A stretch of 63,955 nucleotides of DNA, filler included, from Bonamia ostreae (Eukaryota), in assembly GCA_040357525.1 (NCBI GenBank). It is 24 parts of 24 records of this genome, joined end to end, with 100 filler letters (N's around TTAATTAATTAA, not from the genome) between each part and the next. Parts side by side here need not be neighbours in the genome. Positions count along the whole stretch, not along the records: positions 1 to 2,609 come from JBDODL010000759.1; positions 2,710 to 5,316 come from JBDODL010000760.1; positions 5,417 to 8,015 come from JBDODL010000762.1; positions 8,116 to 10,704 come from JBDODL010000764.1; positions 10,805 to 13,390 come from JBDODL010000765.1; positions 13,491 to 16,076 come from JBDODL010000766.1; positions 16,177 to 18,757 come from JBDODL010000767.1; positions 18,858 to 21,432 come from JBDODL010000768.1; 16 more parts are not named here. One strand, given 5' to 3'. The notes beneath the pieces were generated by a model, which was not told the DNA's origin, ran no database searches, and was given only the letters and a program-made list of their open reading frames with translations. The position numbers and the translations under genes were made by a program. Of this stretch, positions 22-63,315 are shown piece by piece. The number at the start of each line of letters is the position of its first letter. Within the stretch, counting starts at the first letter, position 1.

Positions 22-656
22 TTATAAAACGGTATATCTGATTTCTTTATCAATAGGCCAATTCTGAAGATGAGTTTCGCGCACTAACATATCCACAAAA
101 AGAGTTTTCCCGTGATGCAATTGTCCCAGAAAACTCATGTTTCTGATCAAAAGCGGATTCTCCATCATTTTCGTCATAAATCTGTACGAAAACGAAGTTT
201 CGGGAAGCGCTTTTTCGACGTTGTAAAAAACGCGTGTTTTGGCCGGAGCGATGATCGGCGTTTCAATTGGTTGTGTATCTTCGAGTTGCGTTATTACTTC
301 CGCGTCCGGGTAGACCACGCTCGCGTTCGGGAAATATTGTTTGTCTTCGTGCAAAACAATCTGACTGGACGTGTTTTTGACCATTTTTTGCAGCGCCGTT
401 TTCTCGTTTTCGTCGGCGGCGGCATCTGCGACGGTCGGCGTTTCTGGTCTTTCCACTTGTTTTAAGTTGTCATTTGGGCCTTCTGGAGGCGCAAAAGGTT
501 CGTCTGGTTTGTCATCTTTTTTTTTAAATTGGAAACGTTGTTTTTCTTCTTCGTCGGAATATTCAGACGAATAAGAATCCAATTCCGGTCCAATATAATT
601 TCCAAACTTGATCGTTAAATATAAACTTCGTCGTACATATTTTCTGCGTCAGACAT
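22..656 (-). CDS. EFTUD2: U5 snRNP GTPase Snu114/EFTUD2, N-terminal part (3' truncated)
   Basis: ATG at 656. Removing a 20-nt intron (607-626) gives MSDAENMYDE-FGNYIGPELDS, followed by IVLHEDKQYFP, EDTQPIETPIIAP and the G1 motif GQLHHGKT. Confidence 0.95.
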
Positions 657-1314
657 TCTGAGCTTTTCGGACAGAGATTTTTAAGAAGTTTTAGTATAAT
701 TATATTTGCTAAAATGTTTGGCTAAAATGGTAAAAATTCGTAACTTGTTTTGTTTGTGCGTGTTAAATCTAAAATGTAAAATGTAAAAACATGAAAAATG
801 GCGGATGAGTTAAATTTGTTAAAACAATGAAATAATAATTTATTTTTTTTAAAAAAGTTAATGAAAATTAAATGCTCTGAAAAAATGAAATTTGTTAAAT
901 AAGAAATTTGTTATATAAGAAATTTGTTAAAATTTTGATTTTATTTTCTATTAAAGATGGCGTAAAATATTTTATAATTGTTTCCTTTTATTGTATATGT
1001 GGCAAATAAACTTTAAGTTCACGATTCGATTATTTTTCAGTCTGCTTTCAAATGAATCCACAAAGCAACTGACATTGAAATCATCCAAAATGACGTTATT
1101 ACTTTGGTCGAAAAAATTTGAGTTTTTAATTCTCGATCAAGTTCCAAATTACATTTCTTTTTAACGATATTCATTGATACATTTCTTTATGTTTTTTAAA
1201 AACGGTATATTCAAGAAAAAACAAAAATTCGATGTTTCGTTTAAAAATCAGCACAATTAAACAAATAAAATAATTTTCTTTATCGAAGAAAACGAGATAA
1301 CTCAAAATAAATTA

Positions 1315-2386
1315 ATGGAAAGTTATCTGAACTCATCAACTATCTCACTCTCAAGGCTTCCTGTGTTCAAAAATATAACAAAATCAAGAAATTTCGAGGA
1401 AACGGCTGTCGGTTTAAAACCAAAACATTCAAACGTCCAAAATTATCTATCCTTTTTCAACGAGATTCATTGCAAATCGGAAAAAATTGACAAACTGAAA
1501 AATCATCTTTTAAAATTAATGGAAGAAAAGCAAATTTTGTTGCAAATAACAAGTTTTGAAAAACTTTTCGAAAAAGTGTTCATTGAAAAATATCGCTTTG
1601 TTTTTGTTTTTCAACCGAGAGTTTTCGAAGCCCGCCACGTTCTAGAAAATTACGTTGAGTGTGGATACTACACGCCATTTATTTGTTGCTTTGAATATGG
1701 CCCTTTTGCAGTGTTTGCTTTCCATTCCGCGAACAATGTCACAATGACACCATTGGACGAAGCACTCGAAGTCGATTATGATAATCTGTTTAGATTCTTT
1801 ATCGTGTACTTGAATTATCTGGATTACTGTAATTTGGAAATTGATCGAGAATTAAAAAACTCAACAATTTTTTTCGACCAATGCAATAACGTCATTTTGG
1901 ATGATTTCAATGTCAGTTGTTCCATGGATTCATTTCAAAGCAGACAAAAAAACACCCGCATCGTATCAAGATTCTTCGAAAATTTTTGGGGTTCAATTAG
2001 CAATTTGGGACTATTCTTAAAAGTTGTTGAGAGATTAGCAGCCCTTCCAAGTAATAAATCGATCAAATCAATCTTTCTAATGAAGTATTTTGAGAAAAAT
2101 TCTGACAGATATTTGCCAGAAGTGTTTTTGCAGCAATACGACAAAAGCACAAAAATAGTCAGTTTTTAAATAAAATTTTATAGCACTTTATTTGATTGAT
2201 GGACAGGTCTACAGGTTTAATGCGACTAATCCTTTTTGTTTGACCTATCTTAAATGGAATATCTACATTACCAGGAATTTTGATGATTCTGTTTTAGTGC
2301 GAAAAAATTTGGGGTCATATAAATATCAAAAAACGATACGGGGAAGCAATTCCAAAATATTTTTCGCCGTATTTACATATTATTAA
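1315..2386 (+). CDS. Divergent protein-kinase-like protein (probable pseudokinase)
   Basis: LNYLDYCNLEIDRELKNSTIFFDQCNNVILDDF resembles degenerate subdomains VIa-VII. A short GT-AG intron near 2158 joins the 2192-2386 ORF. Confidence 0.4.
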
Positions 2387-2609
2387 ATCAAACTATTTTT
2401 TCTAAATCCATTTACAATTTTAGCGTTTATTTCTTTCCCAACGTCCTTTTTAGAAGCGTTTTGTGCCAAGATTTTAATAAAATAAGACGTCTCTCTTCTA
2501 ACTTGAAATATTTTTGTCTAACTTGAATTTTCGATCTTTGTTGATTGCTGTGTGTAAAGAATCTAATCGTCTCTTCAATTGATTCCAATTAATTTTTCTG
2601 TGACAATTT

Positions 2610-15031: not shown

Positions 15032-15983
15032 TTAATAATGAAGATTTATTTTTAATACTTCAAACTTAGTTTTGCCAAAACATTTTATAAGTTGGGCATC
15101 ATCTGCAGCTTTTGGCAACTCTTTTCCCCAAAGCCTCTTTTCATAATCTGTCTGTAATAGTTTTTCTTTTAAAATTGGAGTGAATTGTTGATCATAATAA
15201 TAAGATTTATTGTTATCGCGAAAAAATTTTAAAAGCTCTTCGGTATTTTGACCATCTGGATAAACTTTACAACAAGCATAAATAAGTAGAACTCCAAGAT
15301 CCCAGGAATCAGTAAAAAATCCAAATATACCGTTTATACGCAATTCAGGCGGTTCTCCCATATTTGACATTTCGATATTTTCTATAGGCGTATTTAGTTC
15401 CAAACATGATTCAAAATTAGAGATTCGAATATTATCGCCACTACTAATAAGAATATCTCTTGGGTTTAAACCAAAATATACATATCCCTGTTCATCGTGT
15501 AAATATTCCAATCCTCGTATTATATTTCGAAAATATTTTTCTAGAAAATTATTTTAAAACTTATCTGGTTTTCTTTCAAATTTTCACACTTAACAATTGC
15601 TCTAAAATTAGATTAAAAACTCTAAATCAGTAGCGCAATGTTCCATTACAAAAAAAGTCATGCCATTAGATTCAAAGATATGGTAAAGTCTGACGATGTC
15701 ACTGGCATTGTCTTCGGCAGCTTTCATTAGAATTTCTCCTTCTTTTGCATTGTAAGCGGTAGAGGAGAAGATTTTGACGGAATATTTTTGACGATCCGCT
15801 TTATCGGTCACTTGATTTTAAATTGAAACTTGTTGTGGTAGTTCCTATATCTGGGTTTAATTTAGGTATCTTTAAAACATAATCCCTCATTGATTTTGAA
15901 CATTGATCACCATGCACTATTTTAATAAGTATAAAAACTTTGACATGTGCATTCTCTAAATTCAGATTCTTTGATAACTTCAT
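15032..15983 (-). CDS. Ser/Thr kinase-fold pseudokinase
   Basis: YSVKIF, IVRLYHIFE, FFVMEHC, PPE and DSWDLG are present. Catalytic loop YFGLNPRDIL (no HRD Asp) and NFE replaces DFG. Introns 15541-15560, 15602-15620 and 15811-15829 (19-20 nt) join the frames. Confidence 0.75.
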
Positions 15984-18857: not shown

Positions 18858-19987
18858 GAAATAACTAAAATAAACGACAAAAAAATAAGTCCTTTTGTTG
18901 TCCCTTCTATATCAAATAAAGCATCTTCAATAACAAGTTTGCTCTTCGGTTTCAAAGGTCCTTCGATTTCTCTTTTTTCGGCTTGTGCCACTGGAAGCCA
19001 CAGTGTCTCGATTGCGAGCGATTTTATTAAACTGGATCGAGCGGATGTCATGATTTGTGGCGGCGCTGAGAAGACGAATGGCGTTTCTCTGATTCATTCT
19101 GGATTTAAATCTTGTTTGGCGTTATCGAAGCGGTTTGACGAAATGGAGAAAAGTTCGAGGCCGTTCGATGTGAAACGTGACGGCTTTGTGTTGAGCGAAG
19201 GGAGCGGTGTCTTGGTTTTGGAAGAATTGGAGTTTGCGAGAAAAAGGTTTTTATCTCTAAATTTTGAAGAGGAGCAAAAATTTATGGAGAGATTTTGGGA
19301 AGTGGGATGTCAAACGATTCTTTTGATATTACAAAACCTTCAGGGATCGGGGCTCTTTCTGCAATGCAAAATGCTTTTAATTCTGTAAGAAATAGCAAAG
19401 TTTGTTTTTCAAAATTTGATATTTGTGCAAAAAACGATTAAAAAAATTGGTAAAATTTGATATTTGTGCAAAAAAACGATTAAAAAAATTGGCAAAATTT
19501 GATATTTGTGCAGTAAAACGATAATAAAAAAATTGGTAAAATTTGATATTTGTGCAAAAAAAAACGATTAAAAAAATTTGGTAAAATTTGATATTTCTGC
19601 AGTAAAACGTAAAATCTTAAGTTTTCAAAAAACGATATTAACTTCATTGTCGCTCACGGCACATCCACCGTAATCGGCGACAAAGCCGAAACCGAAGCTT
19701 TAGTCGATTTTTTCGGAGAAAAATCAAAAGAAAAAATGACTTTTTCGACAAAAGGTGCTTTAGGCCATACGATTGGAGCGTCTGGAGCGATCGACTTAAT
19801 AATCGGAGTCAAAGCTTTAAAAGAGAAAAAAATCCCAGCGACGAAAAATTTGGAAAAAGAAATTGATTTAAAAATAGATTTTGTCAAAAAAGAATCGCGA
19901 AAAATTGCGACGAAATGTTTTTTGGCCAATTCGTTTGGTTTCGGAGGATACAATTCTTCTATTATCGTCGGAAATCAATTTTTGTAA
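18858..19987 (+). CDS. OXSM: Mitochondrial 3-oxoacyl-ACP synthase (KAS II/FabF type), 5' truncated
   Basis: SACATG (catalytic Cys), SRPFDVKRDGFVLSEG, AHGTST, STKGALGHTIGASG, NSFGFGG; introns 19247-19269 and 19400-19621. Confidence 0.9.
19410..19610. repeat. Intronic minisatellite, about 41-nt unit, about 5 copies
   Basis: Repeats of AAAATTTGATATTTGTGCA...AAACGATTAAAAAAATTGG inside the OXSM intron. Confidence 0.9.
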
Positions 19988-20030: not shown

Positions 20031-20539
20031 TCAGTCATCTTCAGAGCAAAAATTTTCGATTTCTGACGAAACAAAATCATCTTCGTCATTATTAAAGTTT
20101 AGCCAATTTTTCGAATTTTCGTTAAATTTCAGAATAAATTTTCCAAATGAAATTTTTTCTTCCGTCTTTTCACAGTGCAACAAATATAATTTTCTCAAAC
20201 TACTTTTACAAGCAATTTTCCATTTTTCTGTCAATTCTTCAATTTTTTTTATTCGAATTTTTATTTTTTGTTCCGAATTTTTAATTTCTTTTTGTTCAAT
20301 TTTCTTTATTTTCGGATACAAATTTTTAACCACAAATTTGGAACCGACGTTTGAAATGAACGGTTTCAATCTTTTCTGTGATTTTATCCGTTTGTTCGAA
20401 TTAATTAAATGGTTTGTCTAAATTTTAAAAGCACAACTTTTTTAATTTTAGCCAAACTGAATGGCGTCAATTTTTTTAATTTGTTGTTTTTTGGAGTTAC
20501 CGGATTACGATTCGTTACGTCTTTAAGTGCTTCCGACAT
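20031..20539 (-). CDS. Sfr1/Mei5-like recombination mediator
   Basis: A 20-nt intron (20418-20437) joins the ORFs. C-terminal IEELTEKWKIACKSSLRKLY...ISFGKFI...LNFNNDEDDF fits the Sfr1/Mei5 pattern. Confidence 0.55.
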
Positions 20540-20612: not shown

Positions 20613-21254
20613 ATGTCCAAATTCAGCAGAAAGTTTGCGAGTACAGGCAAAATTCTGAAAACGAGGAGAATGGTAAAAACTAAATTTTAAAAAAATTTAG
20701 ATCCCGCCGCGCATAGAAAAACCGTCTTATTATTTGAACGGATTAGTCGAAAACCAAATCGACACAATTCCAAAGTACAAAGAGGCGTTGGCTATCCGTT
20801 CAAACAACATGCGCGAAGCGGCCATTTTGGCCAAAACAATGAGATTTTTGGCCAAATTTTTGGCCAAAGAAGGGACGACGACGGAAGAATTGGATTACAA
20901 AATCCATTTGGATTGCATTGAAAATGGATTCTATCCCGCGGCTTTGCATTACAAAAATTTCCCAAAATCGATTTCGACCTCCGTCAACGAAATTGCCTGC
21001 CACGGCATTCCGGACGACCGGAAATTAAATGTTTTGAAATTTATCGAAAAGAATGGCGATATCTTAAAAGTGGATTGCATGTCTTATAGAAACGGCCATT
21101 TTGGGGATTGCTGCGGGAGTTTTGTAATTGGAGAAGGCGGTAAGGACAGAGAGGAAAAGGAGAATCTTGTCGATGTGGCGAGGAAATGCGTTCGGAAAGC
21201 CATTGATGTTTGCGGACCTGGCGTGCCCTTTTCTCAAGTCGGAAATGTGATTTC
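20613..21254 (+). CDS. METAP1D: Methionine aminopeptidase type 1 (mitochondrial MAP1D-like), 3' truncated
   Basis: Basic N-terminal presequence, IPPRIEKPSYY, GTTTEELD, FPKSISTSVNEIACHGIPD, GDILKVD, GHFGD; introns 20673-20700 and 21031-21051. Confidence 0.85.
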
Positions 21255-24818: not shown

Positions 24819-24904
24819 TGGTGAGATTAAATTATGACGTAAAATTTGCTCTTTATTTATCCTTGCAATGCAACCGTTAATTGTTTGTTAATTTATTATA
24901 AAAG

Positions 24905-25689: not shown

Positions 25690-26685
25690 CTAATTAAATT
25701 TACTGAAAAAGTGCCTTAAATCCAACACGACAACAGTGATATTATCTGTTGAAGCTTCGTTGAATGCGAGCAATCCGAGTTCCCAAGCGGCTTGATTCAT
25801 GTCTTTCGCGTAGAAGGCATCGGATTTCAAGATCGTCTTCGAAGCCGTTTTATTGTCGATGACATCCCAAACACCGTCAGTGGCGAGAATCAAAAACGAG
25901 TCCTCTTTTAATTACGCGAAAACCTTTTTTTAAATCTATCGATTTTATTTCCGGGTCGCAAATCGCGTACTTTTTAAATTCTATATCTCCTAATGCTCTC
26001 GACACAGCTAGTTTCCCTTCTATCCTCCTTTTTGTGAAAATGTACATATACAAACCAAGTACCAAAACTGTAAGAGACACGGCCGCCGAGACTCGAAATT
26101 CTTTTGAATTCGTCAAATTTGCCAGCTTTGTGGTCATTCGAAAGGGGTTCACTGGCTCCACCTTTTTTTACAAGAACCGCCCTCGAATCGCCCGTGTTTG
26201 CTATATACAATGTTTTTTCTGCAACAACGGATACCAACAACGTTGTACCATCCCTTAACTTTCTTTTTCTCGCAATTTCGAGGAATCGCTCGTCCAACTA
26301 ACAGAATTAAATTGAATTCGCAAACGTTGTGAAAAGTGGAAGACAACGCTTCTTTAATGCTGTTGCAGTTGCTCAATTCTTTTTTGAATTCCTGTACAAA
26401 TCTTCCAGACACGAATTTCGCTGTGCTAATTCCGCCATGTCCATCCAACACTCCTGCGACGAAGATTGATTGTTCGCCATGTTTGAATTCTCCGCTGAAA
26501 TGGTCGTCTTCCATTGTGGACCTTCTGCCCCTCATCGAGGCTATTCCAGTTATTGAACCGAAACTCGAAATTTTGTGTTTATAAAAAGCGCTTGTTTTGT
26601 TCGTTAAAAACTTTCGTGTCAGTATAAAATAAAAAGCGACGGATGAAGATATGAGAATGCCGAGAAGAGTAATTATGGCCGGCAT
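25690..26685 (-). CDS. PP2C (PPM) phosphatase with N-terminal membrane anchor (PPM1L-like)
   Basis: GRRSTMED, DGHGG, ANTGDSRAV, LAVSRALGD, LATDGVWDV, STDNITV; introns 26298-26325, 26028-26055 and 25905-25923. Confidence 0.93.
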
Positions 26686-26911: not shown

Positions 26912-28223
26912 TTAATACACCATAAGATACGTTTTTCTGCACAAAATACAGTCTACGTACCCCTTCATAAAATCTTCAAACCTGTTTGTTGAATGATAAA
27001 AAAACTCTTCGTCATCTCCTTCAGACTTATCCTTCAGAAATTCAACGTCGCTACAATCTTTATGTGCGTCTAAGTCAATTCTTTTTGTTGGATCTACTTC
27101 CAGACAACTGTCTATAAACTTTGCTGCAGCAATGTGATTTTCATCTTTTTTCGTGCCAGTTTTGTACCTTCTCACAATAGTCAGACTCATTAATTTCTCT
27201 TCATTATTTGAATCCTTATTCTTTTCAAATAATTTCTCATTTGCTGATTTTTTAGTAAGAATTTTTGACAACATGTTGCCCACAGAAAACCAATCTGATC
27301 TATCGGAAAATTCGCCCTTAACTTGTTCGGGCGCTTCATTAAAATTTCATTAAAATTTGAAATATTCAAATTTGAAAATGTTTAGAAAATAAAAATGGTA
27401 ACCCATGTATTTGAGCGATCCCATTGTATCACGAATTAAATTAGAATCAAGAAATTCGCTTGAGTCAAAATCAATAAGTTTGATATTTCCATCAAAGTCG
27501 ACCATGATATTAGCTGGTTTGAGGTCCAAATAAGCAATATTATTTTCGTGTAGAAACTTAAGCGCGTCTACCAATCTTTCAATAAAAACGCCTTTTTGTT
27601 GTAAAAATTAATTTTTTGTTGTAAAATCGTTGTTCTTTTATTGCGAGATAAAATAAAAACGGGCTATTCTTAAACTCATTTTACTCACCAAATCGCTATT
27701 TTGATAAAAATTAAAAGTTGAAATTGCAGTTTTATATAAAAAACTCACAATCGCATAACAAATATTCTTCGAAGATGAAAGTATATTCGTCTGTTTCCAT
27801 TTGGTGCTCACACTTCACGATACCTCTGTTAGGGCCCGCATTATCCAAAATTTTGAAGATTTCGAGTTCAATTCCCTGATAAAATGCTGGATCTTTTTTT
27901 ACAACTTTCAACGCAAAATGTTTGTTTGATCGATTTATAACTTTTGTATCCATTATTATTATCTTTTTAACAAAATAACGGTACCAAATTTTAATTTTCC
28001 GCCTCCGAAAAAAGCGCATTGTGGGAAAATTTGGAATAAAAAAATAACCATGGAAGATTTTAACTCTACCCGATTTACATACATCAATAAGATCCTCGAC
28101 TTCAAAATCTGAAAGAGTAGCCGTGCAGTCTTTGTGGTATTTTGTTGAAAAAGAGCATTTCGTTTCGTTTAATATTCTTTCTGGAATATCTAATATTTCT
28201 ACCAAAGTTTCTTCCGAATCCAT
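26912..28223 (-). CDS. Ser/Thr protein kinase, non-RD, divergent
   Basis: FALKVV, YLDLKPANIM, KLIDFD, GSLKYM-APEQ (after splicing), SDWFSVG, DPTKRI. Confidence 0.85.
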
Positions 28224-40192: not shown

Positions 40193-42693
40193 GGTTTTAT
40201 AGAATATGTGCATTGACTTTATCGATTTTTAGAGTATGTAGATTAATTGAAAATAGAAACAAAGTAACAATTGGCTCCCGTTTTGTACAGATATTCTTCT
40301 AAAATGAGATAATATCTCTGTGAATAAAGGAGATCACTCAACTCCGTCTTCAAATTCCAAAAAAATGCTTGACCTATCTGCAGTGGATTTTTTATAGCTT
40401 TTCGTATTAAAAATTGCGACAACGTGCTATTATGATATTGCTCAAATTTAAGAGCTTGTACCAATTGGATCAAATAACAATTTATTTCTTCGTCAGTTAA
40501 AGAGTACAAAATTTTTACTGTTTCCTTTCTTACCTTTTTGGTAAATTTAATGTCGACTATTTTTTAATGTCGGAAATTCTATTTAGCAAAAATTAATGTC
40601 TGAAATTTTAATATCGACAATTTGGTAAAAATTTTAAATTTTTAATGTCGACTATTTAACAAAAATTAATATTCACCAATGTGTCATGGAAAGGATAATC
40701 CAACAGAGATATCATTTCTCTAATATGTTTCGGCCGTTTTTTAGACATAAAAATCTTTCTCGCTTCTCTCGTTTCGTGAGGATTCGTCCAATCGACTAAT
40801 TAAAATGCTTTGAAAAAATTTACTGCATTTTAGAAAAATTTTGAGCCGTTGAAAGTTGTTTCTGATATTGTTGCGATCGAGCCAAACTAAACTTTGATCT
40901 TCTTCAGTTAGTTTCATTAGAGGATAAGTGTATATCTGTTTCAGTCTTTCTCTGTTTTATTTAGGCGATTTTAAAACTCGTTTACGATATTCATTCTTTT
41001 GTCAATTATGCTATCAGCTCTACCGTTCGAATGGTAATAAATTGTTTTTGGTGAAAGAACTGGTAATATAAATTCCGGAAATTCTACACAAATTGTCTAA
41101 AATTTTAGTTTTTTTCCAAATTGTTAATTTGATTTTCCGTTATTTTAAATTGATATTTTGTTAATTTAATTTATTTTATATTTAAATTGATTTTATATTT
41201 ATTATTATCGATTTTCCGCTATTTTAAATTAATTTTTTGTTAATTTAAATTTATTTAAATAAAATTAAAAAAAAACTGGTTTGCTATTGTCATTAACGAT
41301 AACATTTTCACCAGTTGGAGCAGTAAAAATATGTTCGACCTCCATTGGCAATGTCCAAAGATTAAATTTTTGTTTTTTAGATAACATCTGTCCCCACTTT
41401 AAAATTGATCAAATTTAAAATTTAGCCATCGCAATTCCATTTTTTATAATTTGTCAAAAATAAAATTTGAACTTCGTTAATCAAATTAACTACAATCCAA
41501 GCAACAATTTCATTTCGATCAGTCAATCTTTTAGAACATACTAAAAAAGCAGCTTTAGTGCTCTAAATTATAACGGTAATAAAACTCTAGGAAGACGATT
41601 GATTTTTATCGATCTGTTTGCAAAACCAATTCTTTCGTTCCAAATCGTGGCGAATTTGGGCTGTATCTTCTTGTAAACAGTTTTTGAGTTCGTCTCTTTT
41701 ATAATCTTGTTTCCGAAAAAACTAAAAATTTGCAAAAATGTTTTTCAAAAATTTTATCTTCTTTCATTTAAGTTTACCGAAAAAGATAAAATTCGAAAAT
41801 TGCTAAATCCAAAAACTACAAAATGAGAGATTTAAATCTTTATTGACTAAAAATTCAAAAACAGAAATGTTTTGACACAAATAGAATCGTTGAGATTTTT
41901 GTTGGGCGTTTTGATGTTGTCAACGCCCAAAATTTTGACCGAAAATGGAAAATTGCATTCTCGAAAAGGAATGTAATCCATTTTCAGCACATCCGCATTA
42001 GGTGCAACGTTAAAATCTCTCCCACTGAGCACTTTCTTAAAATCGCTTTTAATGGCCAAATTCTTATAATCTTTGAACCCCTTTTCAGAGTTCGTTTCAA
42101 AAATTTTCTTCGAAATTTTTGATTTTGCGAGCATTCTGAGCTCGATGATTTTATTCTGTTTTATCATCGATCTCGGATATGCACTGTTCCACAATATTTC
42201 GTCGTTTTCGATGTATTCGTTCATCTTCGACGCCTTTTAAATCAGTTTAAATTTGTATATTCGATAATGATCAAATCCCATTTATTTTATCACTAAAAAG
42301 ACTTTTAGAATAAAATCTGATTTGTCGTCTGTTTTCCCGATGCGCTCAAGGATGCCATAGATCAGATCGCTGGCTGTTGTGGTGGCTACATGTTTTATAA
42401 AATAACCGTCCGAGTCAATGATGACAGTTTTGCCGGACTGGTCGATGCTTCTATCCAATGTGACGAAGCACTGGCAACTAGTGGTTCCAGGCCGGATTTC
42501 GGTTCGAGAAGTTTGTTTTGGTTTTTGGTAATTGTTGAAAATCAATTTTGCGTAGTCGTGTCTTTGTTGATCAAATGACAATAAACGAGGCTGATTTGGC
42601 TCTATAAGCACTGACGGCGGTACTTAACGGGTCGATGCTGAAGTTGAGTTTGTCCTTGTCTAGTAGAAATCTTAGTGTTTCCTTCCAATCCAT
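40193..42693 (-). CDS. Class I-like phosphoinositide 3-kinase catalytic subunit (RBD-C2-helical; kinase domain beyond contig)
   Basis: FILK-ASKMNEY (RBD-like), C2 (WNE..., NRLPR, AWIVVNL), helical YLIQLVQALKFEQYHNSTLSQFLIRKA..IGQAFFWNLK; many GT-AG introns. Confidence 0.88.
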
Positions 42694-43169: not shown

Positions 43170-43635
43170 ATGGCTGAAAAAGATAAAAAAGATGAGGAAT
43201 CTGACAAAAATCGTGCGCACACAAACGAGCAAATGCCAAAATTGCCGAAAAAATTGAATTTTGAAGAAAAAAAGAAATCGCCTAGCAAAAGCTTATCGGA
43301 GTTGTTCGAAATATATACAAATTCCGAAAAATCAAATTTTGCTGTTTTTTCGAAAGATTTTATAAAGTTTGAAGATGTTTATGTAAATCACATTTTGAAA
43401 AAAGTTGGATGTATTTGCGAAGATAAAAAACTGTTTTTAATTTAAAAATTCAAGTCGTATTTTTATCGGATTGATAGTACAACAAATAGTTTGCACAGTT
43501 TTGAAAGATTGCCGTTCTTTCGAAAAACATTTTCAAACGAAAGAAAGTTTTGAAGATTCGCAAAATTTGACTTTCAAGTCGTTACAATTCGTCATTAAAC
43601 AAAATGGACTCGATCTTAATAAATATTTTGTCTAA
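43170..43635 (+). CDS. TAF10: TAF10-like histone-fold protein
   Basis: A 22-nt intron (43433-43454) gives FEDVYVNHILKKVGCICEDKKLRIFIGLIVQQIVCTVLKDC...LTFKSLQFVIKQNGLDLNKYFV*, collinear with TAF10. Confidence 0.6.
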
Positions 43636-47552: not shown

Positions 47553-48057
47553 TTATTGGCCATTAATATACGACATTTCTTCATCAAAAGTTTCCTTCCG
47601 GAAAGCGATTCTGATTGCAGACAGATTCTTTTTCGCGCAGATGGATTTGTTGATTTTGTAACGCCCGTGGTTTTTTCCGTACCATTTTGCTTTAATGCGT
47701 TCGTCAAAGCTGCTTTGATAAACTGAATTCGCAGCGATCTCGCTCAGATCCGTTTTGCTTAGTCTCCAGATCTGTGCGGCCACCGAATACTCTTCTATTA
47801 AAGGGTCCTTCGTGAAATGTATCATTAGCGGGTCGTCAGTGCTCCTAATTTTGTTTGTCGTGATTTGAAAGGAAACAGTGTGCAGTTTAGGCCGACTCTG
47901 AAAAAGTACGGGAACGGGTGTTTTTTGTGTCTGACGAATAGGATGTTGTTAGACAATGGGGATATCGACAGTCCGATTTGAGAGAGGTAGTAACTATGGT
48001 TTTATGTAATAAAACAGGTAACAAAGGAGGGGTGTTTTGTGTAGCAGAATTCCGTGG
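47553..48057 (-). CDS. AMPD: AMP deaminase, C-terminal part
   Basis: HGILL..PLLCYL-YYLSQIG, SPLSNN, L-STDDPL, FTKDPLIEEYSVAAQIW; introns 47994-48015 and about 47845-47876. Confidence 0.95.
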
Positions 48058-48176
48058 NNNNNNNNNNNNNNNNNNNNNNNNNNNNNNNNNNNNNNNNNNN
48101 NTTAATTAATTAANNNNNNNNNNNNNNNNNNNNNNNNNNNNNNNNNNNNNNNNNNNNAAATTAAAATTTTAATTTT

Positions 48177-52063: not shown

Positions 52064-53256
52064 TCAGTTTTGCATCGCCAGCAGCGCTTTCGGGACATCC
52101 ATTTTCTTCATCCCGCCAACCGCCATTTCCCCAAACAGTCTCCCGCTCACAGAATATTTGAGCTCCAGCGCGAACCTCACACGCAGCTCCACTCGCCCGT
52201 CGTAGTTGTTTTCTCGCCCGGACATTTGCCCGAAAAAACTCGAGTTGTTCTCTAGACATTTCCAAGCTTTGTCCGCCGATTCAAATTTGTCTGCTTTTAG
52301 ACAATGGTCCATTATATACAAAAGCTCATTTTCGGACTCGTTTATCGAATGTTTGATGCTTTGTTTTGCCAGGGCGCATCTGTTCTCGTTTTCGATGTAA
52401 TCGTCCATCGTTTTGACGGTCATCGTCAGTTTGGACAACTTTTGGAGCAGTTCCTCGTTTTTCTCGAGTTCGAAGCCGCTTTCGTCTTTTATCCTGTTCA
52501 GTCTTTCCACTTCTTTTCTGAAGGGAACACTGAACTCCGTGGCTTCGCTAGCCGAGATGCAGACATCCCAATCCATGTTGTTTCGAAACACTTCTCGGAG
52601 CTTTGCGGAGTTTTCACGCAATTGTTTGAAATAGGACACAAAGTCGTCAAAGCTTTGTTCGATTCCTCTTGTTATATTCTGCAGTTTCTGCGTGTAGTTT
52701 TGGGAGCCCGTTTCGGCGGAGAGATCTTCTGCGATGGCCGCGACGAGTTTCCGCGTTTCCTCCAACGCTTCTCTGTTCAGAATGTCGCGGAATTTTGGAT
52801 AGAACACGAAAAACTTGGCGCCGTCTTTCGTTTCGGCTTCGCCCACGCTTATCGGGTCTTCGACTCTTTTGTTTTGCGAATCAAGGTAAATCGCGTTTCG
52901 CGGCGTTATTTTCTTGTCTGTTTCGGGCGCGACGAACAGAATGTACTTCGGGACCTTTTTGCAGCCCTTTTCGTCGTGGAACAGCGGCAGCAGCGAATTG
53001 GGGCTTGCTCGCGGTTGGACTGTTGTTATCGCTAAATTGATCGAAGGAAACCTAATCCGTATTTGCTGGGGTAAGAAAAAGTCGGGCGCTCCAGATCTTC
53101 CGAAGCCAGCAACAACAATTTGGGGAGACCAGTTTTTTCGTCTGTCTCAAATTCGTCTAATTTTATAAAGTTCTTTATCGACGAAATCGCCTTCAGAATC
53201 CCAGTCGTGTCGTTGTCATAGTCGACTGTCGAAATAAAGTTTTCAGGATAATTCAT
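52064..53256 (-). CDS. Hypothetical protein of about 390 aa with coiled-coil C-terminal half
   Basis: A 20-nt intron (53032-53051) joins the 53256 ORF to one continuous frame ending at 52064; GC-richer codon usage. Confidence 0.7.
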
Positions 53257-53460
53257 TTTAGTTTACTGACAGATATAATCTTTTTATTAAAAGATTTTAA
53301 AAACGTTTTCGGAATGATCAAAAATTACAGCAATTTCCGATAAATCTTATCTAGAAATGGNNNNNNNNNNNNNNNNNNNNNNNNNNNNNNNNNNNNNNNN
53401 NNNNTTAATTAATTAANNNNNNNNNNNNNNNNNNNNNNNNNNNNNNNNNNNNNNNNNNNN

Positions 53461-56011
53461 AAAATCAATCGCTTTAAAACGGAAATAATGGATTCTGCTA
53501 ACTCGGAGCAAGGCATTCGACCAGAAAATCCAGCGGCTGTGTAGCCATAAATGACATTTGAAATGAGTTTAAAAGATTCTTGTCTGGCGTTCAACAACTT
53601 TTCCAAATTTTTGTCACTTTTCTTCATCTTTTCTTTTATTCCAATTCTAATTTTTAGAAATTTTATCGATAATGAAGAGCAGACCTTGTTTGAAGAAGTT
53701 CTAGAAGCAAAGCTGGCAACAAACCGAAACGTTTTTGATGTTTTACGAAAACGACTTTGTTTGGCGTCAAAAACAAATCTTTCTTATCTACTTCTATTGT
53801 TTGTAAATATAAATAAAAATTGCAACAAAAAATTCAAATTACTTTTGAAATTTGTTTTGGAAGTAACTCCAAATTTTTTGCTGTGAAAATTAGAATCGAA
53901 ATGCAGTTTGCCCAGACAAGTGCTGTAACAAAGATTGTAAGCAATAATTATTGAAGGGTACAAAGAACGGAAATCCAAAACAATTATCGGATCTTTTATA
54001 AATCCCTTTTCAGGTTCTAGAACGAGAGGGATTGACGTGGGCGTATTTTGAGACATTGTCTTTTTTTAATAATATAACATGGAATTGTAAATATCGCCAT
54101 TTTTAATTTAAATTGCGAAATTAAAAAACTTTAAATTGTTTAAAACGCCAAAAATTGTTTAAATTGAAAACAGCAAAAAATTGCAAAAGAAAATAAAAAC
54201 TTTAAATTGTTTAAACAGCAAAAATTGCAAAATTGCAAAAATAAAAACAAAATTGTTTAAAACATCAAAAATTGTTGCTAAATAAAAAAAACTTTAATTG
54301 TTTTTAAATTGTTTAAAACTGCAAAAATTGCAAAATTGCAAAAAAAATTAAAAACTTTAACTTGTTTAAACAGCAAAAATTGCAAAAAACAAAATTGTTT
54401 AAAACATCAAAAATTGTTGCTAAATAAAAAAAACTTTAATTGTTTTTAAATTGTTTTAAATAGCAAAAATTGCAAAAAAAACAAAATTGTTTAAACAGCA
54501 AAACTAGAGATTTTTAAATTGTTTTAAAAACCATTTTTCTAGACGGTGACAATAATTGGTAAACTCCAATTTTTGAAATTCTTGCGAGCATTGATTGCAC
54601 TCTATACTGCGATCCTCTATTTAAAACGTTTGCAAATGTAATTCCATAAATATTTGCTTTTTCACATGTTCGTTCGATAATAAACAAGTTTTCCAAAATT
54701 TCTTTAACAAAAAAATCAAAATGGAATTTAAAAATGCAAAAATCATTTTTAAAATTTAACAATAATTAAAAAATTTTGTATAAAGAAAACGATGAGACAA
54801 AAGACATTTTTTCGCAACATAAGAAATTGCCCTCGATTTTGCAAAACCACCTTTACAAAAATTGGCAAACAAAATTTGGTCATTCAAAGAAGGAAAAGTT
54901 TCGGAAAACAAATCAAAATAAACATTTTGGATTGTATAAGATCGCAATGATAATTCACTTCTGCAAACTCTAAAATTTTGCATTTTTTAAATCGACTTTT
55001 AAAGTTTTTTTTTGGAAAAATTTCAAAATTTCGCCTTTTGATGTTCAAATCGAAAAGGCGATTTAAAAAATTAAACTTTTCAAATTTAAATCATTATTAA
55101 ATCAGAAATGCAAATTTAAAATTAAATCTTTGTTATCTTGTAGTTTTAAAATTTATTCCACCATCAAAAAATAGCTTAAAAACTGCCATATATTAAGGAA
55201 AATCCGCCCAAACTTTTCAAAACAAACAATTTTGCTGTCAAATTGAGCTAACACATTTAACAGCTTTCTATTATCGCTATCAAAATTTCTGCAAAAAACA
55301 TGCGAATTTTTGCCATAAGCTTTTATTATACGATCCAGTAAAAATCCGATCGATTTTTTCTGAATTTCAAATCCCGCTAAAATGTCAATGTCTTTTTTGC
55401 GAATTAAATCGCAAAACTCTTCAATGATTTGTTCTTCGTTATCGCAAAATTTTAGGATTAGCGCCATTTTGTGACTAATTTTGAAAAATTTTAACGGATA
55501 AAATTCGTTAACGTCCAAACGAAAATCGTCGTTTGTCGCAATAACATTCAACTCAAAGTTGTTTTCAGATTTTATTAAAACGCAAATTGTTAAAATTTTA
55601 TCTTTATCCGGATCAGAAAATTTTTCGTTGGTCGTCGATGCCATTAATTCGATATAAGCTAAACTCATTCCTTTAGACAGTTTTTCGTTGTTATCGGCTA
55701 AAATTTGATTATGATCGTTTAAATTCTGATTTTTATCGAAACAGTTTTTATTATCGTTAATCAAATTTTTTATGGAAATAAAGTTCGAGTTTTTGGCTTT
55801 CTTCAGAATTTTGTTGATATTTTTTATTTTATCGCTTTTTTGAGGGTTCAAATAAAAATTTTCAAAATTGGTTAATTTTGAAAAATTTTGATTGTTCGAA
55901 TTTTGGTCGTCAAAAATTTGGTCGTCAAAAATTTCGTCATCAAAAGTTTGTTCGATTGTCAAATTGTCGTTTAAACAAATTTCATCATCGTCAAGATTTT
56001 TTTCGGTGCAA
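53461..56011 (-). CDS. REV3: DNA polymerase zeta catalytic subunit, internal fragment
   Basis: [77 protein letters not shown]. Confidence 0.95.
54120..54510. repeat. Intronic degenerate tandem repeat in REV3
   Basis: Recurrent AAATTGTTTAAA(A)CAGCAAAAATTGCAAAA units within intron 54060-54530. Confidence 0.85.
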
Positions 56012-57869: not shown

Positions 57870-58004
57870 TAAACTAGCGGTTTACACTAAAGTTTAAATA
57901 CAGATTCGATTAAACTAAACAACGCCATTAATTGCGATCATTTATTGCATTAAAACAACGATTGTTAAACATCTCAATATAATCGAAACACTATTAATTA
58001 GCCA

Positions 58005-58661: not shown

Positions 58662-58858
58662 NNNNNNNNNNNNNNNNNNNNNNNNNNNNNNNNNNNNNNN
58701 NNNNNTTAATTAATTAANNNNNNNNNNNNNNNNNNNNNNNNNNNNNNNNNNNNNNNNNNNNAAAATCGATTGAAAAAACAAAACATAAAAAAGAAAATAT
58801 TCAATAATAGACAAACACTTTACCAAAAACCGATTCGATAAAGGATACGTCAAAATCA

Positions 58859-60092: not shown

Positions 60093-61033
60093 TTATCCAC
60101 GCGAATAGCCTCTTTTCCGCAAATTCTGATTAAAACAATGTTCATCGCTGCCCTCTTCAACCGGAAATTCTTCTCTTTTCCTTTCGATTATATCTTCGTT
60201 CCAAACCACTCTCTCATCGCTTTCCCTCGAAACAACATTAAACGGAAAATTCAAAAATCTTGCAATTTTCGCACAAAAGCCAGAATCCGCAAAATAAGCA
60301 AAAATGAAAGAGAAAACGAGGACACCAATCGAAACGAAGAAAACAAGCCACCACATCAACAAAACGCAAAACAAACGCCATTTTTTAAAAACGAATTCGG
60401 ACATTGTCGTTTCGAAGCGGATTTTCGCGTTATAAACCATTTCAACGTCTTCGATATCAATTTTAATCGATTTTAAACGACATTTCTTATTGTCGAAAGT
60501 TCGAAATTTCTCGAAAAGCAAAACTGAATTCGTCGTTTTGCTAAAGAAACAGAAAAAGTTTAAAGGGAAAAGCGGAAAACAAAGATATTCCGCCATTTTT
60601 CTAAAAAGCAGGCCATTTTTGCGAAACGAAATCGGCTTTTTCGAACGTAAGTTTGAAACTCGACGGCCATTTTTTACATTAAGCTCCGTTGCGATCGTCG
60701 ACATTTTTGGTTTGGGGGAAAATGGCGTAACAATATCAAGATAAATGTCGTAAAAATAGTTTTCGTCGAGAAAAAGGGAATTTTTGGAATAAAAAATATT
60801 GTCGTCGCCTGAAAACTGCTGAATATGCTCAAAATTGTAATTTGTTGATACCACTTTGAATTGGGACTTACTAAATTTTAGAATTGGCGAAACTTTAGAA
60901 TAAAGTCGATTTTGACTTTTTCGGTCAATTTTGGGAATTTGAAGAAGAAAGAGAAAGAAGCGTTGATCGCCATTAAAAACGAGATAACGATTAGAATACA
61001 AACGAAAATTATCTCCCTTTTCTTTAAAAACAT
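60093..61033 (-). CDS. Seipin family lipid-droplet biogenesis protein
   Basis: ATG 61033 plus a 23-nt intron (60871-60893) gives an N-terminal TM, lumenal YDIYLDIVTPFSP...VYNAKIRF and a second TM. Confidence 0.7.
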
Positions 61034-61409
61034 TAAAAGGTTTAGGCCAAATTTATTATAAGGTTTTGATATAATAATAGCAATTAGCCATTTGTTAGTA
61101 ATTATGACGTACTTTTGTTGTTAATTTTGTACATTCAATTTTTAAATATTAAAATCGTTTTTGCTAAAAAATATTAGAATTTTTATATATTAAAACGAGC
61201 TTATTTAATATATGGTGGTTTTGTTAAAATAACTTGATAAATTGCTAAATTTTAAACTGTTATGTCTTCGCGGCGAAACAGTGCGAATAATGTTGTTTTT
61301 TTTTTAATTNNNNNNNNNNNNNNNNNNNNNNNNNNNNNNNNNNNNNNNNNNNNTTAATTAATTAANNNNNNNNNNNNNNNNNNNNNNNNNNNNNNNNNNN
61401 NNNNNNNNN

Positions 61410-63315
61410 TGGTTAAAATGCTAAGACTACCTATCTTCGAAAATGAAGCGTCACCTCGCCCACAAATATAAAGTGGAAAGATAAATCTATATCGGCTAAA
61501 AAATAATTTACAAATGCGACGAAAATAAAATAAACTCTGTCAAAGCAAAATAAAGTTTTGACGCCGAAAAGACATCTAACGAAGCTTCACTGAGTCCGAA
61601 CAAAGGTTTTTTGTTAAGTGATGATGAATTGTAGCAATAGAATGCCAAATCGATTCTTCTTCTAAACGAGGGCGCCCCCGACAAAGCCAAAATCTTTTCG
61701 TTTTCCGTAAAGTTATCGCTGCTTTCGAAAATTTCAAACTTTTCCAAATTGTTTTCGTCTTTTGGAATGTTCTCTTTCGTCTCGTCTAAATTTTCTTTTT
61801 CGGTTTCTTTGTTAAATTTAGAAGTTGAGTCTGAACAAAGGGCAATTAATCTATCTTCGTTTTGGTTTTTGTGCGAAGAAACGAGCAAAATTTTGTCCTG
61901 AAAATATGCTTTTTCTATCTTTTCGCCTTCGGCCAAAACAGTCTTCTGGTTAATCCCGGAAATCACCAAATTTTTTTTGTCGTCGAACTGAACATTTTTT
62001 ATGAAACCGAAAAGAAGATCCGAGAATTTTTGTTTGTCAGCCCAAAACCGAAACATCTCTGCGACACGCAGTCCAAAGCGCTTACCGGAAAAACCGAGAC
62101 TATCTTTTCGTTTAAAAAATCTTTCGATTTTGTCATTTTTGAAGCTTTCTCCTGAACCTTTTTTTATAGAAATTCGTTAATATCTAAATCCGAAGATGTT
62201 TTAGGTCAACTTTGAGAATGCTCGAAACGAACTGGATAGTGTCTCCGGTCAGTTGCCAACAACAAATAGACGTCGCCGTCGCCGCGAACAAAAGATCTCG
62301 AGAGTCGTCGACCGCAGTTGAAACGATCCCTTCTGCTTCTTTTCCAAAGATTTGCTTCAAAGGAACGAACAGTTTTTGCAGACTACTTCGAGTTTCTATT
62401 TTTCGCAATTTGCGCCGGTCACCGAAAATGTTCGGAAATCGGCTTCGGTTGTCCTATTCTCATTAAATTGAAAACTTTGTACTCTAGTTCGAAAAGTTGG
62501 CCGTTCTGTGATTTCAGAAAAACTTGTCCTCTTTTCGAAACAGTTATTTTGTCGAACTTTTCACCATTCGTCGGAACGCTGATCTCTATTTTTTTAGGTT
62601 TCAAACTTTTCTGTCGCGCGAAATGTTGCACAGAAGTTTTGTTTCCTTCCAAAATGACGATTTCCGTCTCAGTGGCCAGGAATATAACCATTTGGACAGT
62701 TTCGCCTTTTAAGCTTAAATAATCAACTTTTGTTTGGAGATTCGACTATTTCGGCCGCCCTGATGAGACCTTCGACTTCGGTCAAAACTTGGAAAGGTCT
62801 TTTTTTTACAAAAAAACTTTCTTTCTGTGAAACTCCACAAGACGAACTTTTCGTCGCAGGCGAACCAGGCCAAAGGGAAGAAGGGAGCTAAGCCACAAAC
62901 GGAGTTTATCTTGTTGTCGGTTATTTTCGCTGCGATGTTAGAAGGGATTTTTATGTTTTCGGTTTCAAATTTGTCGTTTGTCTTTTGGATCAGAATTAAG
63001 GTAATTTTTGAAATTATTTTGGTCTCAAATTTTTGGAAATTATATTTTTGGTCTGAAATGTTAGGTTTGTACAATTGGGTTATAAATAACGAATTCGCTC
63101 GTAGATAGTTTTGCCCTTGATTCCGGAGGGTAATCATCGAGAAAGGTTTCATCTAACAACATGGACTTTTCTATTAGCCGCGCGGATGCATAAATCTGGC
63201 TAATGTTTTCTTGAAGAAAAGCTTTAATATAAAATCCGAAACAATGCCGCTCCTTGTTTCCGTTGTAGACTATTTTGGAGTCAGTATTGCTGTCAAGAGC
63301 GCGCGTTCCATTCAT
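61410..63315 (-). CDS. NUP155: Nucleoporin Nup155/Nup170 N-terminal beta-propeller (3' truncated)
   Basis: CGLAPFFPLAWFACDEKFVLWSF, GQVFL...GQLFELEY, AVDDSRDLLF; introns of 19-22 nt at 62799-62817, 62706-62727 and about 62454-62475. Confidence 0.75.

Follow-up and report, generated by a model that had tools for sequence, protein, structure and literature searches.

Do the pieces of 19–28 nt that break open reading frames in the nuclear DNA of Bonamia ostreae correspond to spliceosomal introns, and, if so, by which signals would they be recognised? This oyster parasite (Haplosporida, Ascetosporea, Rhizaria) is represented here by one window, that is, the whole 64-kb stretch of DNA that was analysed, read with the standard genetic code. 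A preliminary description listed 17 GT–AG segments, all 17 of which indeed begin with GT and end with AG and have the lengths given (14 lie on the minus strand and 3 on the plus strand); together with 10 further introns, this gives a sample of 27, and GT..AG ends are found in 27 of the 27 introns of the final table. With a single 64-kb window and 27 introns, any genome-wide consensus is an extrapolation. The best reading of the listed segments is that they are spliceosomal GT–AG introns with a GTT(T) donor, and we infer their splicing from homology and gene models.

Interrupted reading frames and conserved domains

The segments had been described as restoring the frame in conserved proteins when removed. 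This stands for 11 of the 17 (those starting at 607, 15541, 15602, 15811, 19247, 25905, 26028, 26298, 47994, 62706 and 62799), where a Pfam or PDB match is interrupted from donor to acceptor and continues beyond it, and which come from six genes (Snu114, PP2C, kinase, ketoacyl synthase, AMP deaminase and Nup133-like); the other six (20418, 20673, 42562, 43433, 53032 and 60871) are without homology support. A separate gene model, motif-blind in that splice motifs do not enter it, gave 28 frame interruptions in the window, and 12 of the 17 listed introns are GT–AG solutions at these positions, such that the two lines combined cover 16 of the 17, with 43433–43454 identified from open frames. A GTTT..AG solution is present at 11 of the 28 interruptions, whereas 128 decoy motif pairs of matched composition solve 1.66 on average (median 1). 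We note that a GT–AG solution of 15–45 nt is absent at 13 of the 28, some of which are longer introns and several of which lie antisense to supported genes, and that codon-usage gene models do not separate GT–AG from decoy dinucleotides by score alone (20 introns with GT–AG, 7–22 with 10 decoy pairs). Finally, two independent gene models, P0001 and P0004, between them remove 9 of the 27 introns, at the same GT–AG pairs; the Methods of the genome paper state that transcriptome reads were used in annotation training (PMC11069148).

In the Snu114/EFTUD2 gene, the intron at 607..626 (minus strand, 20 nt, GTTT donor, phase 0) follows an upstream exon closed by Y-D-E, and the downstream exon starts with FGNYIGPELDS, identical over 11 residues to human Snu114 residues 9–19; the Pfam EFTUD2 match begins at the acceptor, and the segment is also a motif-blind interruption. 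Three introns, again on the minus strand and with GTTT donors, divide a kinase gene. The Pkinase match 17–83 begins just past the acceptor of 15811..15829 (19 nt), a motif-blind interruption with open flanks of 52 and 66 codons, and halts at 83 near the donor of 15602..15620 (19 nt); the profile is taken up again, from position 100, at the acceptor of 15541..15560 (20 nt). Between the latter two lies a micro-exon of 41 nt (15561–15601), which, with its split codons, fills the 16 missing Pkinase positions. At the 15541..15560 junction, 7 of 8 residues agree with the paralogue P0003 when spliced, compared to 5 of 8 upon read-through. In a second kinase gene, an intron outside the earlier list (27334..27402, minus strand, 69 nt, GTTA donor) separates Pkinase 103–164, which ends at 27404, from 165–254, which resumes at 27334, and is the sole GT–AG solution at this junction.

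The beta-ketoacyl synthase gene carries an intron at 19247..19269 (plus strand, 23 nt, GTTT donor), where the ketoacyl-synt match runs up to profile 251/252 (base 19235), while Ketoacyl-synt_C begins from its position 1 at 19283, in another frame. A longer intron in the same gene, 19400..19621 (plus strand), interrupts Ketoacyl-synt_C, of which 1–39 ends at 19390 and 39–118 resumes at 19619; only two GT–AG solutions exist here, leaving the donor ambiguous between 222 nt (GTTT) and 237 nt from 19385 (GTAA). In the AMP deaminase fragment (minus strand, both donors GTTT), AMP_deaminase 492–531 ends at 47876 and 531–625 resumes at 47846, with a GT–AG solution present at 47845..47876 (32 nt, outside the earlier list), and the match from 492 begins at the acceptor of 47994..48015 (22 nt), for which support is confined to the acceptor side, as the upstream exon meets the N mask at 48058. 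The Nup133-like gene (minus strand) has two motif-blind interruptions, 62799..62817 (19 nt, GTTT), at whose donor Nucleoporin_N 2–57 ends and which is followed by a 71-nt exon, and 62706..62727 (22 nt, GTTG), directly past whose acceptor Nucleoporin_N 91–166 resumes; their joint removal joins frames of 111, 24 and 94 codons. The 91–166 match ends exactly at 62476, next to a further intron outside the earlier list (62454..62475, 22 nt, GTTT), with the next open frame running from 62453.

In the PP2C gene (minus strand), two of the 17 listed segments are already spliced in the public gene models and a third is read through. The profile blocks over its three introns, all with GTTT donors, are 5–82, 93–160, 160–200 and 200–255: the first block ends exactly at 26326, before 26298..26325 (28 nt), 93–160 gives way to 160–200 across 26028..26055 (28 nt), and 160–200 gives way to 200–255 across 25905..25923 (19 nt), downstream of which the exon carries the PP2C motif DSFLILATDGVWDV. 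The public model P0001 splices the first two and misses the third, reading through to a stop at 25880, with the consequence that the PP2C protein is truncated in this model. A PP2C exon matches "hypothetical protein MHBO_002273 [Bonamia ostreae]", blocks of which map onto the window. P0001 also removes, by exact mapping, an in-frame piece at 26591..26611 (21 nt, GTTT donor), which is a multiple of 3 in length, has no in-frame stop and lies in a region that is not conserved.

Longer introns come from mapping the 433-aa model P0004 onto a gene for a family-B, Pol-zeta-like DNA polymerase (minus strand). These are 53647..53684 (38 nt, GTCT, exact mapping); 53794..53842 (49 nt, GTAA, exact mapping), with DNA_pol_B 47–97 followed by 98–133; 54060..54531 (472 nt, GTTT), across which the residue numbering of distant homologues continues without loss (for example, P0011 247–304 then 302–470); 54702..54790 (89 nt, GTTT), with homologue matches on both sides; and 54970..55183 (214 nt, GTTT), with homologue P0007 at 83–241 then 238–283. 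P0004 additionally removes, by exact mapping, an in-frame piece of 21 nt with a GTTA donor at 55475..55495. This piece and its PP2C counterpart of the same length, which come from the gene models only, could be prediction artefacts.

Five of the six listed introns without homology support are motif-blind interruptions whose flanks are open and whose read-through soon meets a stop. They comprise 20418..20437 in an unknown-family gene (minus strand, 20 nt, GTTG; flanks of 83 and 128 codons, stop after 10); 20673..20700, located early in a methionine aminopeptidase (M24) gene (plus strand, 28 nt, GTAA; stop after 5 codons), where the upstream exon is not conserved; 42562..42586 (minus strand, 25 nt, GTTT; 71 and 92 codons, stop after 5) and 53032..53051 (minus strand, 20 nt, GTTT; 70 and 321 codons, stop after 6), both in unknown genes; and 60871..60893 (minus strand, 23 nt, GTTT; 75 and 258 codons, stop after 5), in a gene with a weak Seipin-like match (E 0.0025) that falls under the Pfam cut-off and does not extend across the junction. 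The weakest of the listed 17 is the candidate at 43433..43454 in an unknown gene (plus strand, 22 nt, GTTT), which lies between open frames of 91 and 59 codons with a read-through stop after 4; it was not recovered by the motif-blind model and has no Pfam hit.

Splice signals and intron lengths

Nearly all of the segments were said to start with GTT, and 16 of the 17 do so (GTTT in 14, GTTG in 2, with GTAA in the remaining 1). Across the 21 introns supported by homology or by models, T occupies +3 in 19 (binomial p 1.7e-7 against T = 0.346), TT occupies +3/+4 in 16 (p 2e-11), and G occupies +5 in 3. A purine at +3, which is the rule elsewhere and which the donor consensus of ciliates and nucleomorphs retains as an A, is found in 1 of these 21. 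At the acceptor, A or T precedes the final AG. In 15 of the 21 introns of ≤32 nt, the TAA that had been noted shortly before this AG begins 9–13 nt from the 3′ end (shuffle mean 6.9, for an interval picked post hoc), and YAA (TAA or CAA) begins there in 18 of the 21 (shuffle mean 9.3, with 0 of 3000 shuffles reaching 18, for the same post hoc interval). The claim that a pyrimidine tract is missing holds roughly, with positions −12 to −4 composed of A 0.48, T 0.35, C 0.12 and G 0.05, but some introns do contain a short T run.

The introns are dense, with at least 3 per ~0.9-kb coding region. While ultra-short introns are the commonest, their description as pervasive needs to be qualified, as the ten further introns span 21–472 nt, just 4 of 10 are ≤32 nt, and introns of 38, 49, 69, 89, 214 and 472 nt are also present in the window's genes. 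The size distribution is thus broad with a short mode, rather than uniformly ultra-short.

Alternative readings of the segments

We consider it unlikely that the bias towards GTTT and the shortness of the introns stem from ascertainment and from the AT-rich composition of one window, with donors and sizes being ordinary genome-wide. By seeking short pieces that restore the frame, the earlier search favoured short introns with lengths that are not multiples of 3. A+T makes up 69% of the window, and six of the ten independently found introns exceed 32 nt. In addition, the genome paper terms the introns of B. ostreae "canonical" (PMC11069148). However, even among the ten introns found through homology or independent models, 8 begin with GTT and 6 with GTTT (p 4e-4 against composition), the usual +3 purine is nearly lost from the supported set, and composition-matched decoys score far lower at the motif-blind interruptions.

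Very unlikely, in our view, is that the segments are kept in the RNA and represent pseudogenes or assembly frameshift errors, with coincidental GT..AG ends. In one DNA run, the A-run adjoining 25905–25923 differs in length by one base, indicating that homopolymer errors or variants do occur; the insertions considered here, however, are of 19–28 nt and not 1–2 nt, they have GTTT, WAG and a positioned YAA in common, their removal restores unbroken conserved-domain matches in six genes, and conservation is seen on both exon sides, catalytic motifs included. Even less credible is that the ribosome skips over segments still present in the mRNA, through translational bypassing or programmed frameshifting: the frames do differ across each short piece, but this reading fails to explain why introns of 69–472 nt share these GT..AG ends and this donor bias, the incoming frame meets a stop within a few codons in most pieces, and spliceosome parts are encoded within the window (the Snu114 N-terminus, CWC25 and a G-patch protein). 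Least plausible of all is excision at the DNA level, with the assembly being a germline-like form, as, despite a size overlap with the internal eliminated sequences of the ciliate Paramecium, the ends are GT..AG and not TA..TA, the contigs of DNA run X1 (possibly the assembly's own source) are colinear through 25654–26772 with three introns inside and no exon joint reported, and we know of no nuclear dimorphism in this rhizarian.

A proposed splicing mode and its precedents

Taken as a whole, the observations are best explained by genes that are dense with U2-type spliceosomal introns, mostly of 19–32 nt but with a tail up to at least 472 nt, with reduced and shifted signals, which on the sequence evidence we consider very probable. 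The spliceosome would remove the segments from the pre-mRNA, using a 5′ site that reads G-T-T-T, without the +3 purine and without the +5 G. The YAA located 9–13 nt before the 3′ end would be the putative branch site, placing the branch adenosine ~7–11 nt from the 3′ splice site, and the short introns, some of which flank the 41- and 71-nt exons, are probably recognised across the intron. The preliminary description suggested that donor pairing with U1/U6 may be altered; no snRNA gene was found in the window. Past its GU, a GUUU donor is predicted to be unable to pair with the 5′ end of a canonical U1. In that case, either a U1 that has co-evolved with the donor, as in Entamoeba, or chiefly U6, U5 and proteins would select the 5′ site.

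By analogy, the closest precedents are the mikrocytids, with introns of 16–17 nt, and Entamoeba, with a GUUUGU donor and a co-evolved U1. The mikrocytid study describes 224 introns in 179 genes of Mikrocytos mackini and Paramikrocytos canceri, 217 of the 224 being 16 nt and nearly all others 17 nt (PMC10245619). Like B. ostreae, these organisms are Ascetosporea that parasitise oysters or crabs, with spliceosomal introns at the extreme short end, but as described there their introns are few and highly conserved in sequence (PMC10245619), whereas those of B. ostreae are dense, span 19–472 nt and show conservation only in GTTT, YAA and WAG. For Entamoeba, a change of the U1 5′ end from ACUUAC to ACAAAC that matches the donor is reported, with added pairing to the U6 ACAGA box; its donors share with those of B. 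ostreae a U at +3 and +4 in place of the usual purines, but retain +5 G and +6 U (87.9–89.5% are exactly GUUUGU), compared to a +5 G in 3 of 21 supported introns here, and Entamoeba is intron-poor, in contrast to the intron-dense genes of the window (bioRxiv 10.1101/2022.06.08.495308).

The comparison of sizes with ciliate and nucleomorph introns is borne out, as those are GT–AG introns of ~15–30 nt, against 19–28 nt here, with Paramecium, Stentor (15–16 nt) and the Bigelowiella natans nucleomorph (18–21 nt) as examples (PMC10245619). These systems likewise have many short GT–AG introns, presumably recognised as a unit, but in narrow size ranges, without the long tail seen in B. ostreae (PMC10245619). 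Among parasites, myxobolid myxozoans and Dicyema japonicum have median introns of 22–27 nt and resemble B. ostreae in their reduced motifs, with A residues before AG as the suggested branch site and a short or missing pyrimidine tract; they are, however, animals, and their 5′ signal is "GTa" with an A at +3, where B. ostreae has T (PMC13644364).

A GTTT donor is not described for this group in the text of the published account with which we compared it (PMC10245619), where the mikrocytid consensus is given only as a figure. Introns with such a donor are partly missed by gene-prediction pipelines.

Probable introns within conserved proteins

Bonamia ostreae is a haplosporidian (Ascetosporea, Rhizaria) and a parasite of the flat oyster. 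The 63,955 bases of the window, at ~30% G+C, give numerous open frames of medium size when read with the standard code; with the ciliate code nearly all of the window is open, which makes that translation uninformative. Evenly spaced N masks, recurring every ~2,660 bases and each made of 12 bases between two runs of 44 N, cut several genes, and there are two additional gaps of 10 N, at 4546–4555 and 14993–15002. Pfam matches on 57 open-frame pieces describe a eukaryotic nuclear gene set, with Snu114/EFTUD2, two kinases, a beta-ketoacyl synthase, an M24 aminopeptidase, two lipocalins, PP2C, AMP deaminase, LicD, NELF-B/COBRA1, CWC25, a G-patch protein, a family-B DNA polymerase, a Nup133-like protein, and an EF-hand protein. 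Rfam and tRNA scans detected no snRNA or tRNA in the window, and a 'Flavivirus-5UTR' Rfam match at 51478–51609 (−) was discarded as chance (32.7 bits at E = 0.0095, where the gathering score is 80). We also note that two open frames of ~235–239 codons overlap at 57998–58714 (+), and that the frame at 58002–58706 has ankyrin repeats.

The preliminary description had listed 17 segments of 19–28 nt as introns with a GTT(T) donor whose removal restores the frame of conserved proteins. All 17 run from GT to AG, 14 of them on the minus strand, and the donor is as described, being GTTT in 14 cases, GTTG in two, and GTAA in one. The same termini bound every one of the 27 introns in our final set, which adds ten introns found independently of that list. 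Translations of all stop-to-stop pieces from the genes concerned were located in their Pfam family profiles; for 11 of the 17 listed introns, a Pfam or PDB match halts at the donor and restarts at the acceptor, and most of the ten additional introns likewise bridge interrupted Pfam or homologue matches, with frame and homology both restored on removal. Pfam searches on the flanks of the other six (20418–20437, 20673–20700, 42562–42586, 43433–43454, 53032–53051, and 60871–60893) gave nothing usable. When the homology and the motif-blind lines described below are combined, frame restoration is borne out for 16 of the 17, and 43433–43454 is placed by open frames alone.

In the PP2C gene, the translated pieces cover profile positions 5–82, 93–160, 160–200, and 200–255, with breaks exactly at 26298–26325, 26028–26055, and 25905–25923, and the exon that follows the 19-nt intron 25905–25923 bears the PP2C motif DSFLILATDGVWDV. 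The Snu114 exon upstream of 607–626 closes with Y-D-E, and the downstream exon starts with FGNYIGPELDS, identical to residues 9–19 of human Snu114 as seen in solved spliceosomes. For the first kinase, the profile halts at position 83 before 15602–15620 and restarts at 100 after 15541–15560, the 41-nt exon between the two introns filling the missing profile residues; at the 15541–15560 junction, seven of eight residues are like those of a B. ostreae paralogue when spliced, vs five of eight when read through. Apart from a paralogue, a protein search with the kinase exon returned just the fragment from the window itself. The N-terminal domain of the ketoacyl synthase stops at 19235, and its C-terminal domain begins at 19283 in a different frame. 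For the Nup133-like protein, a match to profile positions 2–57 stops at the donor of 62799–62817, and a match to 91–166 restarts past the acceptor of 62706–62727; searching with its exon among longer proteins gave no match. The kinase and Nup133-like genes contain micro-exons of 41 nt (15561–15601, −) and 71 nt (62728–62798, −), respectively, each between introns of 19–22 nt.

The match in the AMP deaminase fragment begins at the acceptor of 47994–48015, the upstream exon falling in an N mask. This piece (47553–48057, −) holds the C-terminal part only (profile 492–625 of 630), up to 50709 the minus strand shows no further match to AMP deaminase, and a LicD-family frame (48165–49103, +) occupies the expected place of the upstream exons on the opposite strand. 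This may reflect truncation of the gene, a gene fragment, or a join made during assembly.

Motif-blind placement and splice signals

Free to delete any 15–40 nt and given no knowledge of splice motifs, a codon-usage Viterbi model set 28 frame interruptions, and 12 of the 17 listed introns are GT-AG solutions of these. The GT..AG pair solves 15 of the 28, the top count among 64 pairs formed from eight dinucleotides that contain G or C (all 256 dinucleotide pairs average 8.4 of 28), and GTTT..AG solves 11, where 128 composition-matched decoys solve 1.66 on average (median 1). Of the 13 interruptions that lack a GT-AG solution of 15–45 nt, some correspond to longer introns, and several are antisense to genes with support.

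Codon usage was also tried directly on boundaries. A GT-AG Viterbi on codon usage recovered nine of the 17 listed introns, and as a boundary test returned 20 'introns' with GT-AG vs 7–22 with ten decoy dinucleotide pairs; the codon score alone is thus unable to place boundaries and was dropped as a test. A scan for GTTT..WAG scored by flanking codon usage gave 12 loci, with obvious false positives among them, vs 1–10 for 23 decoy combinations, and was likewise set aside. Scanning by open frames only raised the GTTT share from 19% to only 38–42%, and an unrestricted listing of open frames was uninformative. Six further loci are tentative candidates: 2162–2183 (+), 24994–25009 (+), 38424–38443 (−), 46592–46619 (−), 58341–58364 (−), and 59979–60003 (+). 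The second of these lies in the second lipocalin-like gene, which may have a GTTT intron of either 16 or 19 nt at 24994.

Across the 21 introns backed by homology or by gene models, position +3 is T in 19 (p = 1.7 × 10–7 against composition) and a purine in one, TT stands at +3/+4 in 16 (p = 2 × 10–11), G is found at +5 in only three, and position –3 holds A (11 introns) or T (ten), never C or G. Position +6 is mixed (T in eight, C in six, and A in four, n = 18). The ten introns found without the preliminary list show the same donor, with GTT in eight and GTTT in six. The supported introns thus do not follow GTRAGT, the complement of the U1 5′ end; this is a departure from the usual consensus rather than a class-defining feature, as Entamoeba and yeasts illustrate.

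Toward the 3′ end, the lack of a pyrimidine tract is broadly confirmed, although some introns have a short T run: in the short introns, the stretch from –12 to –4 consists of A at 0.48, T at 0.35, C at 0.12, and G at 0.05, and runs of five pyrimidines occur in eight of 26, with 4.8 expected. The TAA said to precede the AG stands as a matter of position and not of mere presence. In 15 of 21 short introns (shuffle mean 6.9), a TAA begins at a distance of 9–13 nt from the 3′ end, and a YAA (TAA or CAA) does so in 18 of 21 (shuffle mean 9.3), with none of 3000 shuffles as high in either case, for a range picked post hoc; a TAA located at any place within the final 16 nt shows no enrichment over shuffles (18 of 26 vs 14.9, P = 0.13).

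Size range, gene models, and reads

The 27 introns span 19–472 nt, with 21 at ≤32 nt and 20 at ≤28 nt, where it should be noted that the 17 listed introns had been picked for shortness; among the ten found without that list, four are ≤32 nt and six are longer. The earlier statement that the introns are ultra-short therefore applies to most of them, which lie under ~30 nt, but the range is not narrow and has a tail to 472 nt. Pfam continuity indicates introns of 69 nt in the second kinase (27334–27402), 32 nt in the AMP deaminase fragment (47845–47876), and 222 or 237 nt in the ketoacyl synthase, as well as longer gaps, with approximate ends, in the L1-domain gene (~330–360 nt; 33006–33372, −) and an interruption of ~65–80 nt, also approximate, in NELF-B/COBRA1 (49767–49887, +).

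Two gene models, the public PP2C model P0001 (MHBO_002273) and the polymerase model P0004, splice nine of the 27 introns, and they amount to indirect RNA support, since training of the B. ostreae annotation is described as having used published transcriptome reads (PMC11069148, accessible text). P0004, a 433-residue entry of a representative protein library, maps exactly onto the polymerase gene, with introns, in order, of 21 nt (GTTA), 214 nt (GTTT), 89 nt (GTTT), 472 nt (GTTT), 49 nt (GTAA), and 38 nt (GTCT). Distant Pol-zeta-like homologues lose nothing over the gaps of 214 and 472 nt, so both of these introns are real. The polymerase gene itself (53253–56055, −; Pol-zeta-like by weak homologues) has a DNA_pol_B match that ends at profile position 186 of 453, and is followed on the same strand by a 360-codon open frame (52067–53146, −) with no Pfam match, there being an N mask at 53361–53460; either the gene is broken or its catalytic half has diverged strongly.

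A protein search with a PP2C exon found one entry, the B. ostreae hypothetical protein MHBO_002273, the blocks of which align to the window. The PP2C model (243 aa; 25880–26685, −) removes 26298–26325, 26028–26055, and a 21-nt in-frame piece (26591–26611), and reads through 25905–25923. Because this read-through runs into a stop, the model is without the last ~55 profile positions, which are intact in the next frame. Annotation pipelines therefore miss some of these introns, at the cost here of a C-terminal catalytic part. Among the searched proteins of 95–303 residues, no public model matches the kinase gene that carries three such introns.

A search for sequencing runs listed X3 (labeled 'RNA?', share 0.35) and X12 (RNA, share 0.05), small shares in oyster or mollusc metagenomes being left out of the evidence. 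Over 24204–26772, X3 gave one contig (24366–24821), which covers an intron-free lipocalin coding region, X12 gave nothing, and X11 covered the last 85 bases only. There were no joints and no RNA contig over any intron, an outcome that is neutral on splicing. The lipocalin-like gene under this contig is the first of two in tandem at 24156–25535 (+). A DNA contig of run X1 has one extra T at 25924, corresponding to an extra A in the A-run of the coding-strand exon, beside the donor of 25905–25923; this is either a homopolymer variant, which would shift the frame if real, or an error. Elimination of the segments at the DNA level, as in ciliates, was rejected, as their ends are GT..AG rather than TA-bounded and DNA contigs pass three introns without a joint, in a run that may itself be the source of the assembly.

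Donor recognition and its implications

Taking these observations into account, the segments are most likely U2-type introns with minimal, shifted signals. The spliceosome would remove them, with YAA as a putative branch site ~7–11 nt from the 3′ site, and recognition would probably occur across the intron, as suggested by exons that measure 41 and 71 nt and sit between introns of 19–22 nt. The canonical U1 pairing sequence ACUUAC is given as matching GUAAGU (bioRxiv 10.1101/2022.06.08.495308), and a GUUU donor with no preference in the exon or for G at +5 would leave little beyond GU for such pairing.

In the parts of the same source available to us, Entamoeba is described as having a GUUUGU donor, a U1 changed to ACAAAC, and extra pairing with the U6 ACAGA box (bioRxiv 10.1101/2022.06.08.495308). 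The Bonamia donors resemble it in having TT at +3/+4 (16 of 21), but differ in that G at +5 is found in only three of 21 and +6 is mixed. Ultra-short introns are themselves known from ciliates, the chlorarachniophyte nucleomorph, and the mikrocytids, relatives of Bonamia that have introns of 16–17 nt and for which only U2, U4, and U6 are listed as identified (PMC10245619, available sections). Introns of mikrocytids, heterotrich ciliates, and the nucleomorph are confined to a size window of a few nt, in contrast to the 19–472 nt of Bonamia. The sections of PMC13644364 at hand describe ultra-short introns with a donor reduced to 'GTa' in myxobolid myxozoans and Dicyema, and a passing remark in a 2026 paper has the numbers and sizes of introns drastically reduced in Ascetosporea (PMC13746701, accessible text). 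The B. ostreae genome paper, as far as its accessible text goes, terms the introns 'canonical', with 'mean introns per mRNA 2', and 'intron' is absent from those of its supplements that were available (PMC11069148); neither 'intron' nor 'splic' occurs in the transcriptome paper (PMC9329632). Our literature search found no description of intron size or donor motif for Bonamia or other haplosporidians, and work on haplosporidian actin genes in subscription journals, which was beyond this search, may bear on novelty. What differs from the precedents compared is the combination of GTTT without G at +5, a high density of introns, and a size range that has a short mode and a long tail.

A bolder reading, which we put forward as possible but rather doubtful, is that B. 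ostreae, and perhaps haplosporidians generally, would run intron-dense genes on a 5′ site pared down to GUUU, with neither a purine at +3 nor a G at +5 and with canonical U1 pairing only at GU. This would entail either a co-evolved U1 5′ end or a choice of 5′ site that is largely independent of U1, made via U6, U5, and Prp8 together with a fixed, short spacing from branch to 3′ site. If this reading is true, it would place a transformed donor consensus within an intron-rich genome, such changes having so far been tied to intron-poor lineages, according to the text available to us (bioRxiv 10.1101/2022.06.08.495308).

For annotation, gene models of this notifiable oyster pathogen need a minimum intron of ~15 nt and a retrained donor model. 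A small coding fraction, a short mean CDS, and gene 'losses' are reported for B. ostreae (PMC11069148, Table 1, from the accessible text), and if missed introns are general, all three would partly be artefacts. Beyond annotation, GUUU without a G at +5 in an intron-dense genome, beside relatives with 16–17-nt introns and no identified U1 or U5, forms a graded series that can serve questions of how the 5′ splice site and U1 co-evolve and of how introns shorter than 20 nt are recognized.
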